Notes: generated by a model not told the origin, from the sequence alone. DNA of 35,314 bases from Candidatus Latescibacterota bacterium (GCA_012962735.1 DTXA01000513.1:1-35314); one strand, 5' to 3'. Positions 3,883 through 35,314 are shown, counted from the stretch's first letter. Program-made: numbers and translations.

Positions 3883-5025
3883 TTATATCAGTCCGGCAGC
3901 TTCGTACATGGCCAGCACGTTCTCCACCGGGGTCTTAGGCAAAATCGTGTTGCTGGACCCCAATATCCACCTTCCCATAGGAAGGGCCTTCTCTATAAGC
4001 TCTCTTACGGCATCTTTCACCTGCTCAGGCCTTCCTCTCCTCAGAAGCCTGGAGCTTACGTTCCCCCAACAAGTGAGCTTCGGGAACCTCTCCTGCACCT
4101 CGGGTATCCTCATACCGGCGTCGTGGTCTATCTCCCCGTATCCATCCACCCCCGACTTCCCGAAGAGCTCCTCCGCTATGGACCAGAGGTCCCCATCGCT
4201 CCGGAAGACGTATTTCAACCCGAGCTTGTGCGCATATCCCACGATCCGCTTGAGCCTGGGCAGGACGATCTCCCTGAAGACCCTCTGCCCGTAAATCGGT
4301 CCACGGTTGTCGGCCAAGTCTCCCCCTCCCCAGACGATCCGTACGCCCAGCTCAGCTTGGGCCTCCAACTGCTGCCGTGCTCTTTCCACCTGCGCGTCCA
4401 AGTACTCCCCTACAAGGTCCGGAGCTAAGGCGCAGGCCGTGAGCCATTCCTCGTTGAGAGGGACCGAGAGCCCGGCCCCCCGTCCCAGTACTTCGAGCTC
4501 CTCCCCGACCAGCTCACGCCAGTGCAAGATGTGTCTTGTGAATTCTTCCCTTTCCTCCTCCGCCCACATCTCCGCCCCGCGCCAGGCCTCATCCACCCGG
4601 GCTTTGAGGGCTTCCCTCCCCCTCCATGCCGGCTTCCGGTTGTACTGAACCGGTCCATAGGTGCCGGAGTCCGGATCGTACCTGTACACCGCCCAATCCC
4701 CCTCTGGGTCCCCGTACAGGAATTCGTATTCCCCCACCTGTTTCGTGGGAGGCCCTATAGTCCACGGTCCCGCCACAGCCCCAAGTCTAAGAGCTCGAGC
4801 TAAGTCCACCACGTCCCGTTCCATCCTCTTCCTGAAATCCCTGTACGCCTCCGGCCCCTTTACTGCCGCGACCGCCTCCTGGTAGTGCAGCATAACCGAA
4901 CCCGTATGTGCCTCCCGCCCCAAGATTTCCGAGGCGACGTCCGAGGCGAAGGCCTGCTCGTAGGCCGGAGGCCGATCCGTGGCCTTCCCTTCAAAGGCCG
5001 CTAAGAACCTCTCCCTCTCCGTCAT
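3883..5025 (-). CDS. Uroporphyrinogen decarboxylase (URO-D) family protein, second paralogue
   Basis: The C-terminal half (GGGDLADNRGP...FRSDGDL...GSSNTILP) parallels the URO-D-like gene at 211-1287. Confidence 0.7.
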   Translation of the reverse strand: MTERERFLAAFEGKATDRPPAYEQAFASDVASEILGREAHTGSVMLHYQEAVAAVKGPEAYRDFRKRMERDVVDLARALRLGAVAGPWTIGPPTKQVGEYEFLYGDPEGDWAVYRYDPDSGTYGPVQYNRKPAWRGREALKARVDEAWRGAEMWAEEEREEFTRHILHWRELVGEELEVLGRGAGLSVPLNEEWLTACALAPDLVGEYLDAQVERARQQLEAQAELGVRIVWGGGDLADNRGPIYGQRVFREIVLPRLKRIVGYAHKLGLKYVFRSDGDLWSIAEELFGKSGVDGYGEIDHDAGMRIPEVQERFPKLTCWGNVSSRLLRRGRPEQVKDAVRELIEKALPMGRWILGSSNTILPKTPVENVLAMYEAAGLI

Positions 5026-22139: not shown

Positions 22140-22186
22140 AGACCGAGAAACGGTCGTTTACTTCAAAGGGGCCTCTCTTTCGGTCT
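22140..22186 (-). other. Imperfect intercistronic stem-loop between the ABC permease stop and the livM-like start
   Basis: Minus-strand AGACCGAAAGA...TTTCTCGGTCT gives an 11-position stem with one mismatch and one G-U pair and a 25-nt loop. The SD GGAGAG and the ATG follow. Confidence 0.3.
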
Positions 22187-22228
22187 AATACAAACCAACT
22201 GGAGACCTCAGGGGTTATATTTAAGAGG

Positions 22229-23068
22229 CTATCCCTTAAGCCCGGCTCGGGCCATACTCTCGATGAAGTACCGCTGGAAGAAGACATAGGCCAGAAGAAT
22301 GGGTACGGCAAGCAAGGTAGCCGCCGCAAGTTTGGGCCCCAGCAGTGCCTCCGACCGTCCGCTGACCGCAAAGAGGGCCACCACCTGGGGCATAGTCATC
22401 AGCTTTGGCTCCCGGATCACGATCAGCGGCCAGAGGACCTCGTTCCAGCTGGCCATGAAGGTAAGGATACCCACAGTGACCATAGCGGGCCGCGCCAAAG
22501 GCCAGACGATCCTGAACAGGATCGTCAGCTCGCCGCAGCCGTCGATCCTGGCCGCATCTATCAGGTCTTGGGGGATGCTCCGGAAGAACTGCCGGAACAG
22601 GAAGATGCCGAAAGCGCTGACCATACCGGGTACGATCAAGGCCAGGTACGTGTCCACCCACCGAAACTTGACCATGAGCACATAGGTGGGTATCAAAGTG
22701 AGCTGGAACGGGACCATCATGGTAAACAGGACCACCCCGAAGATAAGTTCCCCTCCCCGGAACCTCAGCCGCGATAGGGCGTATCCGATCATCGAGCCGA
22801 AGACCAGTACCGAGACGGTGATAGTCAGCGCCACGAACAGGCTGTTGAAGAAGGATCGACCGATGGGGGTCCGTTCCAGGACCATCCGATAGCTGGCCAG
22901 GGTCCAGTTGTGGGGAACCAGGCCGAGGCTCGGGATTTCCACCTCGGGCTTGAACGTGGCCGCCACCATCCAGAGGAACGGATACAGAAAGATCAGGCCC
23001 CCGGCCAGTAACACGGCATACAGCAACAATCTGGAAAGTTCCCGAAGTTGTCCCATATATATCTCCAA
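22229..23068 (-). CDS. Carbohydrate ABC transporter permease (MalG/UgpE-like)
   Basis: FLYPFLWMVAATFK N-terminus and an EAA-type loop (DLIDAARIDGCGELTILFRIVWPLARP). Confidence 0.85.
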   Translation of the reverse strand: MEIYMGQLRELSRLLLYAVLLAGGLIFLYPFLWMVAATFKPEVEIPSLGLVPHNWTLASYRMVLERTPIGRSFFNSLFVALTITVSVLVFGSMIGYALSRLRFRGGELIFGVVLFTMMVPFQLTLIPTYVLMVKFRWVDTYLALIVPGMVSAFGIFLFRQFFRSIPQDLIDAARIDGCGELTILFRIVWPLARPAMVTVGILTFMASWNEVLWPLIVIREPKLMTMPQVVALFAVSGRSEALLGPKLAAATLLAVPILLAYVFFQRYFIESMARAGLKG

Positions 23069-23119
23069 GGGCCCCTAAAAAGTATCTGAGCGGAGCGAAG
23101 AACTCTTCGGGGCTGTATA
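23069..23119 (-). repeat. Stem-loop leader module, copy A (malF-like / malG-like intercistronic)
   Basis: Minus strand: TATACAGCCCCGAAGAGTTCTTCGCTCCGCTCAGATACTTTTTAGGGGCCCTTGGAGATATATATG. The hairpin arms lie within 23072-23112. It is near-identical to copy B at 34361-34429. Confidence 0.7.
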
Positions 23120-23126
23120 CCCCTCC

Positions 23127-24023
23127 TCATACGTAGACCTCACGTTCCACGAAACGACGCTGAAGTGCCACCACTGCGAATATAATCACGGCGAACACGA
23201 ACCCGAGCGTGGCCGCATAACCCATTCTGTAAAAATAGAAGGCTTGCTTGTAAATGTAAAGAACCGCCGAAAGGGTGGAGTTGAGAGGTCCTCCACCCGT
23301 CATCATGTACGGTTCTATGAACAGTGAGAAACCGCCGATGGTCGAGAGCACCAGGACGAGCACCACGACCGGGTTGAGCATGGGCAACGTTATATGCCAG
23401 AACATCCGCCAACGGGAAGCTCCGTCCAGCTCGGCTGCCTCGTATAGATCGGGAGAGATCCCCTGGAGTCCCGCTAAGAACAGGACGATATAAAGGCCCA
23501 CGTTCTTCCAGGTGGCCATCAGCGCTATGGAGGGCATAGCCCAATAGGGGCTGGAGAGCCATGGGACTCTCCCCAATCCCAGCTTCGTCAAAATGCCATT
23601 GAGGAGCCCGGTCTCCTCGGCGTAGAGATGCTGCCAGAGGATCGTCACAACGACGCCGGATACTACCACCGGGGCGAAGTAGGCCGCTCGAAAGAAGCCC
23701 CTGAGACGAATCCTACTGTTTAGAAGCTCTGCGAAGAAGAGGGCCACAGCGATCTGGAGGGGGATGTGGATGGCCAAGAAGACCAGCGTGTTCAACAGCG
23801 CCCGAAAGAAGAGGAGGTCCGAGCTAAGCCGGGCGAAGTTGGCGAGTCCCACCCACTTCATAGGGGATACTATGTCCCACTTGTGGAACACCAGCACGAG
23901 GGAAAAACTCAAGGGGTAAGCTATGAACACGAGGAAGTGGAGGCTGTACGGGATGCAGAAGAAGTACCCTATCCTGGCCAATCGCCTTTGCAACCCAGAG
24001 GGCTTTTTCCCATCGGTCCTCAC
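23127..24023 (-). CDS. Carbohydrate ABC transporter permease (MalF/UgpA-like)
   Basis: An EAA loop (LYEAAELDGASRWRMFWHITLPML) and six predicted TM helices. Confidence 0.85.
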   Translation of the reverse strand: MRTDGKKPSGLQRRLARIGYFFCIPYSLHFLVFIAYPLSFSLVLVFHKWDIVSPMKWVGLANFARLSSDLLFFRALLNTLVFLAIHIPLQIAVALFFAELLNSRIRLRGFFRAAYFAPVVVSGVVVTILWQHLYAEETGLLNGILTKLGLGRVPWLSSPYWAMPSIALMATWKNVGLYIVLFLAGLQGISPDLYEAAELDGASRWRMFWHITLPMLNPVVVLVLVLSTIGGFSLFIEPYMMTGGGPLNSTLSAVLYIYKQAFYFYRMGYAATLGFVFAVIIFAVVALQRRFVEREVYV

Positions 24024-26284: not shown

Positions 26285-26358
26285 ATTATTCTCTCCAAAG
26301 AACGATCGTTCGCTTTAGAGTGGCTTTTTCGGCCTAATATGGGCCAATTGATAAGAGA

Positions 26359-26383
26359 CCCCAAAGCGGAGAACTTTTCGGGG
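26359..26383 (-). repeat. Stem-loop leader module, shortened copy C
   Basis: Minus strand: TATTGGCCCCGAAAAGTTCTCCGCTTTGGGGTCTCTTAT, immediately after the aminotransferase stop. It shares GCCCCGAAAAGTTCT and TTTGGGG with copies A and B. A similar SD (TTTGGAGAGAATAATATG) sits at the GTPase start. Confidence 0.5.
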
Positions 26384-26392
26384 CCAATAGCT

Positions 26393-34011: not shown

Positions 34012-34360
34012 CCCCTCCTTTCGGGACGAGGGCGGGGAGATCGACCAGCCACAGGACCCTCTCCTCCCTGTATGCCAGGGCCCATATCCATGGGAAGCGG
34101 AGCTTCGCCTCGATGAGAGTGGGGAGAGGGTAGATCTGGGCAGGGGATAGGGAGGTCACCCCATCCACCTCATCCACCACTACCAAGAATGGACTCTCCC
34201 CACCCACCACCAAAGCCTCCCCCGAAAAGCCACCGAACCCCAGCTCCTCCGCCAAGATCACCTTGGGGAGGGAAAAGTTCGGCTCCCGCAAGACTTCCTC
34301 CACCTCCCGGAGGTCTGCGGCAAAGGGAAACCCACTGGCCCAGAAGGTCAGTACCTCCAT
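33995..34360 (-). CDS. cheW: CheW-like coupling protein (short, 121 aa)
   Basis: The position is immediately upstream of cheA, overlapping it by 17 nt. The CheW-like pattern is (F.ASGFPFAADLREVEEV...LVVVDEVDGV...LWLVDL). Confidence 0.65.
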   Translation of the reverse strand: MEVLTFWASGFPFAADLREVEEVLREPNFSLPKVILAEELGFGGFSGEALVVGGESPFLVVVDEVDGVTSLSPAQIYPLPTLIEAKLRFPWIWALAYREERVLWLVDLPALVPKGGDADVP

Positions 34361-34429
34361 CTATATCTCCAAAATAAGGGATCCCCAAAAAGTACCTGAG
34401 CGAAGCGAAGAACTTTTTGGGGCTATATA
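34361..34429 (-). repeat. Stem-loop leader module, copy B (perfect 11-bp stem)
   Basis: Minus strand: TATATAGCCCCAAAAAGTTCTTCGCTTCGCTCAGGTACTTTTTGGGGATCCCTTATTTTGGAGATATAGATG. The arms at 34383-34393 and 34412-34422 are perfectly complementary, with an 18-nt loop. Confidence 0.75.
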
Positions 34430-34446
34430 ACTTGACAATGTCACAT

Positions 34447-35314
34447 TTAAGGTGGTGAGTGGGAATGGTGCTGAGCTTTCAGCCGACTCTTACGCGAGCG
34501 GGTGCGGCGCACCAGAAGCTCGATGACGTGAGCTTGGGCTTCCTCGGGCGAAAGCTTGGGCAAAGGCATCACCGCCTTCAGCAATGTACGCACATTAGCC
34601 ACCGACAGAGCCGGCAGTACCTCCACTTCGAACTGCGCCGCCAGTCTCGGGTCCCGGCTATAGCGCTGCACCCAACGCAGCTTTGTCTCGGCGATGAACC
34701 AAGTGGCCAGGATGGTCATGGCAAGATGGTGCATCCAGGCTGTATACTTCTGGGCTTGCAACTCATCCCAGCCTACCTCAGATTTGGCCTCCTGGTGAGC
34801 CCGCTCGCAAAAGTAGCGCTGACATTTCAGATAGGCCAACCGCTCCAGTGGGGTGTCCGCTGGGGCATTGCTCAAGGCATAGGTCATCCTCCCGTTGGAC
34901 TCTTTGCGCATCACCAGCCATTCTTCTGCCACTTCCCCTTCGTGCACCGTCCACACACGCCTGGCGGCAAACTCGTCCTCAAGCACTCCCCGCTCGGTGC
35001 TGCGCACACGGACACGTTGCCAACGGGTCTCCTTTTGGCTGGACAGGCTATGCACAGCCACCGCTGGGGTGCCAGATACCACCTGAGGGCGGATGGGATG
35101 ACGTCCCCTGTTGCCACGCCTGGGCGGCACCGCCAGGGTAGGAAGGCTCAGGTAGACCTGAGTGTCCCGGGGAACCTCGGCAATATAGACCACCCCAGCC
35201 TGTCGCAACTGATCCCGAAACCAGCCACTTTGCCCGTAGAGGGTATCACAGGCAACCGCCTCAAAGGGCAATACCCCTTGGGCCAAGATCTGCTGGATCA
35301 TCTGCCAGCCCAGC
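34447..35314 (-). mobile_element. IS701-family (DDE) transposase gene, C-terminal part; the 5' end lies beyond the window edge
   Basis: VACDTLYGQSGWFRDQLRQAGVVYIAEV and CERAHQEAKSEVGWDELQAQKYTAWMHHLAMTILATWFI match the IS701/ISRSO17-type DDE transposase C-terminus. The reading frame stays open to the window edge upstream of the listed Met. Confidence 0.75.

Follow-up and report, generated by a model that had tools for sequence, protein, structure and literature searches.

MIRUs, which are among the systems closest to the element described here, point in the same direction as their operon, maintain translational coupling through small ORFs and are often arranged in tandem. The end of the Correia element begins with TATAG, as does the left end of our element, and, in the work of De Gregorio and co-workers, Correia-type hairpins are reportedly targets of RNase III or RNase E. 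According to a review, MIRUs are co-transcribed repeats of 40-100 bp in polycistronic operons, and their ends overlap the stop and start codons of the neighbouring genes; they have imperfect inverted repeats at their termini, GC-rich ones inside and short direct repeats beside them, and both empty and filled sites are known (PMC3184786, citing Supply 1997). [quoted passage not shown] Correia and ERIC are among the bacterial MITEs that were reviewed in the same work (PMC3184786). A further group, the CGTC-tagged REPs, was found in five phyla and is characterised by a CGTC/TGTC tag, a stem that starts with A-T and head-to-head dimers (PMC3733652).

The locus that we compared with these systems belongs to a Candidatus Latescibacterota bacterium (GCA_012962735.1 DTXA01000513.1:1-35314), and this whole stretch of 35,314 nt is referred to as the window. 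The first-pass annotation had noticed a stem-loop that was repeated directly upstream of several minus-strand genes, and had read it as a leader under RNA-level selection while also recalling REP-type intercistronic elements. The second of these likenesses was borne out. Our analysis indicates that the stem-loop is quite probably the left half of a non-autonomous, MITE/REP-like mobile intergenic repeat of 65-135 bp.

Results

Copies in the window and architecture of the repeat

Copies A and B were present on the minus strand, near-identical as had been quoted, and their 47-nt core (87% identical) was the longest direct repeat of the window (Table 1). The 19-nt apex AGTTCTTCGCTYCGCTCAG occurred within the window in these two copies only, with 0 occurrences expected from shuffled sequences. 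The placement of copy A inside an operon was also correct; both genes beside it encode BPD_transp_1 permeases of a sugar ABC operon, while copy B lies 5' of the gene for a 121-aa CheW that heads a cheA-cheB-cheR cluster. The perfect stem that had been claimed for copy B was confirmed. Inside it are three further pairs and a 3-nt loop that is closed by a GC/GC pair. The fold reached -21.2 kcal/mol (z -2.5) when the minus strand was used, compared with -20.1 kcal/mol (z -3.0) for the plus strand. In copy A, the two G.U pairs described for the minus strand do exist, but a bulged A had gone unmentioned and the hairpin was not the minimum-energy fold in its local context (z -0.2).

The shortened relative before the GTPase gene, copy C, reached no more than 13.5 bits (E 0.06) under the hairpin model, whereas its downstream 58 nt, the right module, matched with E 4.6e-15, which identifies copy C as a true relative of the family. 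The right-module profile gave two further matches in the window, copies C and E. The latter had been overlooked, so that the earlier inventory of copies was incomplete; its hairpin 1 is almost wholly deleted. The degenerate copy that had been proposed at 46-124 (copy D) could not be recovered on the minus strand, where the hairpin and right-module models both failed; the sole match of the hairpin model was at 112-145 on the plus strand (9.6 bits, E 1.1), and the right-module profile found nothing. The divergent intergenic region at 46-145 contains, on its minus strand, scattered pieces that resemble the ends and the apex (TATAC..CCCCAAAAGTT, GAGCGAAG and GATATATC) in no recognisable arrangement. 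This region may be a rearranged old copy.

Table 1. Positions of the repeat copies and their parts in the window, of the adjoining insertion sequence and of examples of the cross-phylum unit.
Feature	Coordinates	Strand	Anatomy	Score	Placement
Copy A, short form	23057-23119	minus	TATACAG, CCCCGAAGAGT, TCTTCGCTCCGCTCAGAT, ACTTTTTAGGGG, CCC, TTGGAGATATAT, ATG (23119 down to 23054)	hairpin model 71.7 bits, E 2e-20	between malF-like gene (stop 23127) and malG-like gene (ATG 23054-23056), both minus
Copy A, hairpin 1	23072-23112	minus	arms CCCCGAAGAGT and ACTTTTT(A)GGGG, apex TCTTCGCTCCGCTCAGAT
Copy A, GGAG	23063-23066	minus	right end		6 nt before malG-like ATG
Copy B, short form	34362-34429	minus	TATATAG, CCCCAAAAAGT, TCTTCGCTTCGCTCAGGT, ACTTTTTGGGG, ATCCCTTATTTTGGAGATATAG, ATG (34429 down to 34358); part 3' of hairpin is ATCCCTTATTTTGGAGATATA, then GAT	hairpin model 80.6 bits	GAT restores CheW ATG (34358-34360)
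Copy B, hairpin 1	34383-34422	minus	perfect 11-bp outer stem
Copy C, long form	26285-26389	minus	3' of hairpin 1: second hairpin GGCCGAAAAAGCC, then CTCTAAAGCGAACGATCGTTCTTTGGAGAGAATAAT, then ATG		abuts ATG of Obg/TGS-type GTPase
Copy C, hairpin 1	26359-26383	minus	apical deletion
Copy E, long form	22141-22220	minus	ATATAACCCC/TGAGG (remnant of hairpin 1), TCTCCAGTTGGTTTGT, second hairpin, TTTGAAGTAAACGACCGTTTCTCGG	right-module profile E 2e-12	directly after malG-like stop, before BPD_transp_2 gene start (22122)
IS701-family end, not part of repeat	34431-35314	minus	transposase C-terminal half, ORF 34447-35301
Cross-phylum unit, L010 (loci L005-L112)	1083-1186
Cross-phylum unit, L065 (loci L005-L112)	4320-4394
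Cross-phylum unit, L094 (loci L005-L112)	1463-1500

The family comprised 16 copies: the four of the window and about 12 distinct copies on metagenome contigs from related Latescibacterota-labelled organisms. Metagenomes were scanned with an exact 22-nt apex pattern, which extended the apex by four bases, and about 11 distinct loci were obtained; because the pattern had to match exactly, the metagenome copies are biased towards young, near-identical ones. A covariance model that was built from 12 copies recovered one more, L126b, in which the hairpin has a 5-nt apical deletion. The metagenome loci share the hairpin (TATAG)CCCCAAAAAG...CTTTTTGGGG(G/A)CCCC, and many copies have a longer second module, ...CCCCTTATGT-CGGGCCGAAGGAAAGGCC-TCTCTAAAGTGAACGATCATTTCTTGGAGATATAT. 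Overall, the element is a mosaic of 65-135 nt, which occurs in a short form (A, B and L124) and in long forms (C, E, L115, L126a and L131). In order, it consists of the left end (T)ATAG, a 40-nt hairpin CCCCAAAAAGT...ACTTTTTGGGG, a GCCCC linker, optional middle modules, including a second small hairpin, and the right end TTTCTTGGAGATATA(T). The hairpin is damaged in four of the 16 copies, having lost the apex (C and L126b), the 3' arm (L130) or nearly everything (E), which shows that it decays after insertion. On the 3.6-kb contig L126, two antisense copies (790-843 and 1737-1785) bracket a single DHDPS-family gene; this pair, in which the second copy is without the five apical nucleotides, illustrates both the local density and the decay of the family.

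In the right module of L115, L121 and L126a, the sequence GAACGATC(G/A)TT(T)C is conserved, and it is palindromic in copy C, where a perfect 12-nt palindrome, GAACGATCGTTC, lies at 26299-26310 on the minus strand, 3 nt before the GGAG. This sequence could be a protein-binding site or a part of a hairpin that masks the Shine-Dalgarno sequence.

The element contains no ORF, and no start-to-stop ORF runs across it in the copies of the family. That it is not a described family, as had been supposed, agrees with Rfam, in which the window had no match at the gathering score and copies A, B, C and E gave nothing meaningful at E<=10 or E<=1. Full-text literature that was searched for the core sequence returned chance primer matches only, viral contigs scanned with the left-arm and right-module patterns gave 0 matches, and a tRNA/tmRNA scan found none. 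Another 10 kb of flanking sequence from the source genome held 0 further copies, compared with four in the 35-kb window, and a query with the protein that neighbours the L123 element matched the same 7-kb contig only and added no copies. Of two window proteins that were looked up for more sequence from the source genome, the IS701 transposase was not on record, and one from the left end of the window gave short contigs only.

Empty sites, ends and target duplications

Close relatives of the malG-like permease occur in two NCBI MAGs that bear the label Candidatus Latescibacterota (89% identity), in a JGI contig (79%) and in a Logan contig (73%), which are the loci L132-L135. Site A is empty in all four, with permease genes that overlap or abut, e.g., ...TACCTGTGAGGAGGGTGCTGCTC in L132, and site E is empty in L132-L134, in which the spacer after malG is only 4-20 nt long. 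There was no copy anywhere across the 28 kb of these loci. For the 121-aa CheW, the only relative that was found (L139, 70% identity) is also without the element; the junction between the upstream cheW and this gene reads GGAGGGATGATGGAAG, a TGATG stop/start overlap. In the lineage of the window, site B reads GGAGGGGTGAT-[TATATAG...GGAGATATA]-GATGGAGG, which is the L139 junction plus the element plus a duplicated GAT. Based on these empty orthologous junctions, copies A, E and B, i.e., all but one of the four in the window, are insertions with respect to the relatives.

The left end ATATAGCCCCAAAAAGTT and the reverse complement of the right end ATATATCTCCAAGAAATG agree at 13 of 18 positions (permutation p 4e-4), i.e., they are imperfect inverted repeats that are 72% alike. 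When the ends were defined strictly, as 4 nt before CCCC and as GGAGATATA, perfect 3-bp flanking repeats (TAT, TTT, GAT and TCT) were present in 4/8 complete copies, compared with 3/56 mismatched controls. The left boundary varies among the copies (4 or 7 nt before CCCC), and the duplication test therefore needed some freedom in the ends; with ends sliding by up to 3 nt, the repeats were found in 6/8 copies compared with 12/56 controls, and 2/8 copies were without a duplication. That the repeat has spread by insertion is shown by the filled and empty sites, together with the target duplications and the imperfectly inverted ends. No inverted dimers occurred among the 16 copies. No cognate transposase was found in about 45 kb of the source genome, in which the sole IS, of the IS701 family, has different ends.

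This IS, which was assigned by a match to DDE_5 and by a match to NF033540 (1e-35), sits precisely at the left tip of copy B and parts cheW121-cheA-cheB-cheR from the upstream cheW genes. In L001 (9920-9940) and L004, from other assemblies of the same organism, copy B lies between the two cheW genes and the IS is absent, while the contigs L002 and L003 begin or break at that base; the IS701 insertion is thus polymorphic in the population.

Placement, orientation and gene starts

Genes were told from other frames by their base composition, since real genes in this 61% GC genome have a GC3 of about 0.75-0.8 and a GC2 of about 0.42. Every copy has co-directional genes on both sides, and it takes up nearly all of the spacer except in L118, where a gap of about 380 nt precedes the next gene. 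The GTTCTTCGC strand is sense to the genes in seven of the 16 copies (A, B, C, E, L119, L121 and L124) and antisense in the other nine (L113, L115, L118, L122, L123, L126a, L126b, L130 and L131). Pfam confirmed 9/10 ORFs that flank antisense copies; the matches were histidine kinase, class II tRNA synthetase, AP_endonuc_2, YbbR, POR, galactokinase, NifU, DHDPS and DUF362.

The two orientations are placed differently. In the five sense copies with an intact right end (A, B, C, L121 and L124), GGAGATATA(G/T) abuts the ATG, which is 0-2 nt away, and the upstream stop is at a distance of 0-10 nt. In the antisense copies, the hairpin end is about 13-31 nt upstream of the next start codon, the next gene keeps its own Shine-Dalgarno sequence and, L118 excepted, the other end lies 0-30 nt past the previous stop. 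That the module ends in a Shine-Dalgarno sequence beside a start codon had been stated correctly: each of the five sense copies has its own GGAG 5-8 nt before the ATG. The same five still show a purine-rich native Shine-Dalgarno sequence 1-12 nt before their left end. The native sequences that were seen are GGAGGGG (A and B), GGAGG (L121), AAGGAG (L124) and GAGGAAAGG (L119). The native GGAGGGG of site A (23121-23127) has come to lie about 65 nt upstream of the malG-like start, and both the sequence and the comparison with the empty sites leave the GGAG of copy A as the only Shine-Dalgarno sequence within reach of that start. This geometry makes it rather more probable than its opposite that the GGAG end of the element replaces the displaced Shine-Dalgarno sequence in the sense copies. 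Such a putative ribosome site would explain why sense insertions are tolerated past the native Shine-Dalgarno sequence and antisense insertions only upstream of it.

Gene starts may also be altered by the insertion. The ATG of the malG-like gene in the window lies directly past the end of the repeat, and the N-terminus is MGQLRELSRLLLYAV in the window, VRRVLLYAV in L132 and MYRPRWSHVLSYSV in L134, so the insertion apparently rewrote the start of this gene. The number of residues before the conserved LLAG varies among close relatives of this permease (13, 18 and 19, in a comparison of window 23054-23080 with L132 2133-2160 and L134 2110-2160). According to one reading of site A, the ancestral start was in the ATGA overlap (ATG AGG AGG GGA CAA...), the element landed after codon 3 with a duplication of GGG, and its terminal ...AT together with a host G formed the new ATG; an alternative reading is an insertion into an AT-rich spacer. 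At site B, it is the duplicated GAT that restores the ATG.

The apex unit in other phyla

On the opposite strand, hairpin 1 has the apex GTATCTGAGCGAAGCGAAGAAC, which is nearly equal to a unit, (T)GTCAT(T/C)CTGAGCGNAGCGAAGAAC, that was met across phyla. A scan of a genome collection with the 19-nt apex gave, among the matches listed, more than 108 loci of at least seven phyla (Acidobacteriota, Bacteroidota, Proteobacteria, Bacillota, Actinomycetota, Verrucomicrobiota and one haloarchaeon), with the source genome not among the matches listed. As a pattern, the 19-nt apex is unspecific, the matches listed being REP-like units from unrelated phyla. Their commonest context on the other strand is (T)GTCAT(T/C)-CTGAGCG-N-AGCGAAGAAC, in which N is free (A 57, C 19, G 19 and T 15 among the matches listed). 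The unit reads CU/GA/GC/GNA/GC/GA/AG, that is, a GNA triloop with two closing G-C pairs and flanking tandem G.A, and a free middle base is what would be expected for such a triloop. As DNA, d(GCGNAGC) forms an exceptionally stable mini-hairpin. The unit often occurs in inverted pairs; several genomes have two facing units that are 70-100 nt apart and form the ends of a palindromic repeat of about 85-110 nt. The arrangement CCCCGCGAA-GTTCTTCGCTGCGCTCAGATAC-ATTCGCGGGG on an actinobacterial contig from a termite gut resembles the architecture in the window. Rfam returned no match for 18 of the cross-phylum loci. The unit resembles the CGTC/TGTC-tagged REP superfamily and fits its published description. 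The window family has a degenerate tag (AAGTAT), and its old copies can do without the apex.

The same 19-mer also occurs within head-to-tail tandem arrays (L021 5148-5517; L029 6604-6676; L058 1061-1315 and 5540-5945), whose periods are 117 nt in Neglectibacter caecimuris, 54 nt in an Alistipes MAG and about 127 nt in MAG SKYG40. Related units with conserved flanks were observed in Acutalibacter and Prevotellaceae MAGs.

Discussion

The claim that the stem-loop is a leader fixed on the coding strand did not hold, since nine of the 16 copies are antisense and the orthologous junctions of the relatives are without it. Mixed orientation, empty orthologous junctions, inverted-repeat ends, 3-bp duplications and hairpin deletions all argue against a fixed leader. 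The first-pass annotation itself had named the occurrence of copies in both orientations as the mark of a generic REP/MITE, and this is largely what was found. We propose that the repeat spreads in the Latescibacterota-labelled lineage by inserting into the few non-essential bases at gene junctions, usually leaving a 3-bp target duplication; a parent IS that mobilised it would carry the ends TATAGCCCCAAAAAG. A sense repeat may land between the native Shine-Dalgarno sequence and the start codon, or even within the first codons, after which, judging from the geometry, its own GGAG would take over the initiation of translation. In the opposite orientation, the repeat would survive only upstream of the native Shine-Dalgarno sequence. 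Inside operons it would be co-transcribed in either orientation, and the RNA hairpin would be as stable in one as in the other (about -21 to -23 kcal/mol). The weakest step is the last one, in which the hairpin, by analogy with REP and Correia elements, would act as a barrier to or a target for RNases and uncouple the stability of the neighbouring cistrons. We therefore put forward a modulation of segmental mRNA stability by the co-transcribed hairpin only tentatively.

A different explanation, which we regard as rather unlikely, is that the hairpin is a host-selected cis-acting RNA element that is kept because it stabilises or processes operon mRNA, with mobility being a mere route of arrival. 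The hairpin fold is indeed stable in both orientations, and the single-sided changes in the stem mostly give G.U pairs on the transcribed strand (two each in copy A and L118, and one each in copies B and C, L126b and L131), with an A.C mismatch on that strand in L121 only. The asymmetry between G-U and A/C that had been reported before is thus present at 8:1 (one-sided binomial about 0.02). These changes did not all arise separately, however, because stem variants are shared within sub-families: A and C have CCCCG in common, L126b and L131 have GGGA, and GAGG occurs in L113, L121 and E. The number of independent events is therefore nearer to five or six. A deamination bias on the non-template strand would yield the same wobble asymmetry. 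Because of these shared variants and of this transcription-linked mutation bias, the ratio is a lead only, and as a sign of RNA-level selection it is suggestive only. G.T pairing in REP stems has been read in the same way before (PMC3733652). Covariation, on which the leader had been argued, was not significant in this hairpin. Across the 12 full hairpins, 97.4% of the cells pair and 10/16 pairs never vary; the one pair that changed on both sides, with pairing preserved (L113, CCTC/GAGG), was matched or exceeded in 113/500 shuffles. Moreover, the hairpin is deleted in four of the 16 copies and the repeat still precedes those genes, and the genes downstream have no function in common (permeases, CheW, GTPase, DHDPS, NifU, galactokinase and histidine kinase).

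A still bolder combination can be imagined, in which the right inverted repeat has been shaped into a portable ribosome site, the hairpin is selected as RNA in either orientation and the tip module (CTGA-GCGNAGC-GAAG) that is shared across phyla points to one conserved recognition or mobilisation factor. We consider this combination improbable. If it were true, the portable ribosome site would let a transposon colonise the ATGA/TGATG junctions of coupled genes with the downstream gene surviving.

Even less probable, in our opinion, is a portable promoter or 5'-UTR cassette like Neisseria REP2, in which the TATA(T/C)AG of the left end would be a -10 box and transcripts would start at the hairpin. 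TATATA or TATACA does lie 2-3 nt 5' of the hairpin, and the IS701 insertion in the window severs the cheW-cheA operon from its upstream genes, yet the allele persists. However, a scan with the sigma-70 consensus, from which the phylum's own promoter consensus may differ, found no promoter at copy A or B, the -35 position would fall in unrelated coding sequence, more than half of the copies face away from the downstream gene, and copies lie in the middle of operons. Finally, a solo end of the neighbouring IS701-family IS or a bidirectional intrinsic terminator can practically be dismissed: copy B touches the IS end in the window and the hairpin is GC-clamped, but copy B exists IS-free in L001 and L004, the IS tip (CTTGACAATGTCAC...) is unlike either end of the repeat, and the terminator scan gave nothing at A or B, the stem running into GCCCC or CTATA with no U-tract beyond it on either strand. 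The first-pass annotation had likewise spoken against a bidirectional terminator.

With the stem-loop understood as part of a mobile repeat, what appeared to be a novel RNA leader becomes a mobile intergenic repeat family of an uncultured FCB-group lineage (Latescibacterota-labelled MAGs). In practice, such repeats break assemblies (two contigs end at copy B), mimic conserved leaders and alter gene starts. A transposon end that doubles as a Shine-Dalgarno sequence, as the geometry suggests, would explain a life inside tightly coupled operons, and the filled and empty junctions are natural pairs for studying how coupling is replaced by independent initiation.

Compared with the known systems, the element resembles MIRU in being intercistronic, in touching stop and start codons and in having known empty and filled sites, but it differs in occurring in both orientations and as single copies, with no evident ORF and no sequence similarity. 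Its long form matches the layout of REP2 and the Borrelia IR repeats. Unlike the element, REP2 is without terminal inverted repeats, has a promoter and faces its gene, whereas here there are imperfect inverted ends, target duplications, no promoter consensus and a majority of copies that face the other way. The Correia/NEMIS and ERIC-type MITEs are about 100-160 bp long, have inverted-repeat ends and short target duplications, insert next to genes, are co-transcribed and form long hairpins, a description that our element, with its imperfect ends, resembles. The Correia hairpin, in contrast, is formed from its two ends and the target is TA, while in our element the left end pairs with its internal copy to give the main hairpin, the target duplication has 3 bp and a putative Shine-Dalgarno sequence makes up the right end. 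The apex is near the cross-phylum unit (T)GTCAT(T/C)CTGAGCGNAGCGAAGAAC, which fits the description of the CGTC-tagged REPs (Di Nocera et al. 2013, PMC3733652), but in our element the unit lies buried in a longer A5/C4 stem, at its tip, with a degenerate tag, and dimers never occur; the flanks of the palindrome are (T)ATAG/ACAG and AAGTAT, neither GTAG nor CGTC. Judged by its sequence, the element is not a member of MIRU, REP2, Borrelia IR, Correia/ERIC or the CGTC-tagged REPs, and it lacks at least one defining feature of each of these families. It is a non-coding, multi-copy repeat of less than 300 bp with target-site duplication and with presence or absence at orthologous sites, and in these features it fits the general definition of a MITE best. 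It is an ordinary kind of bacterial repeat, which was found here in a little-studied phylum.
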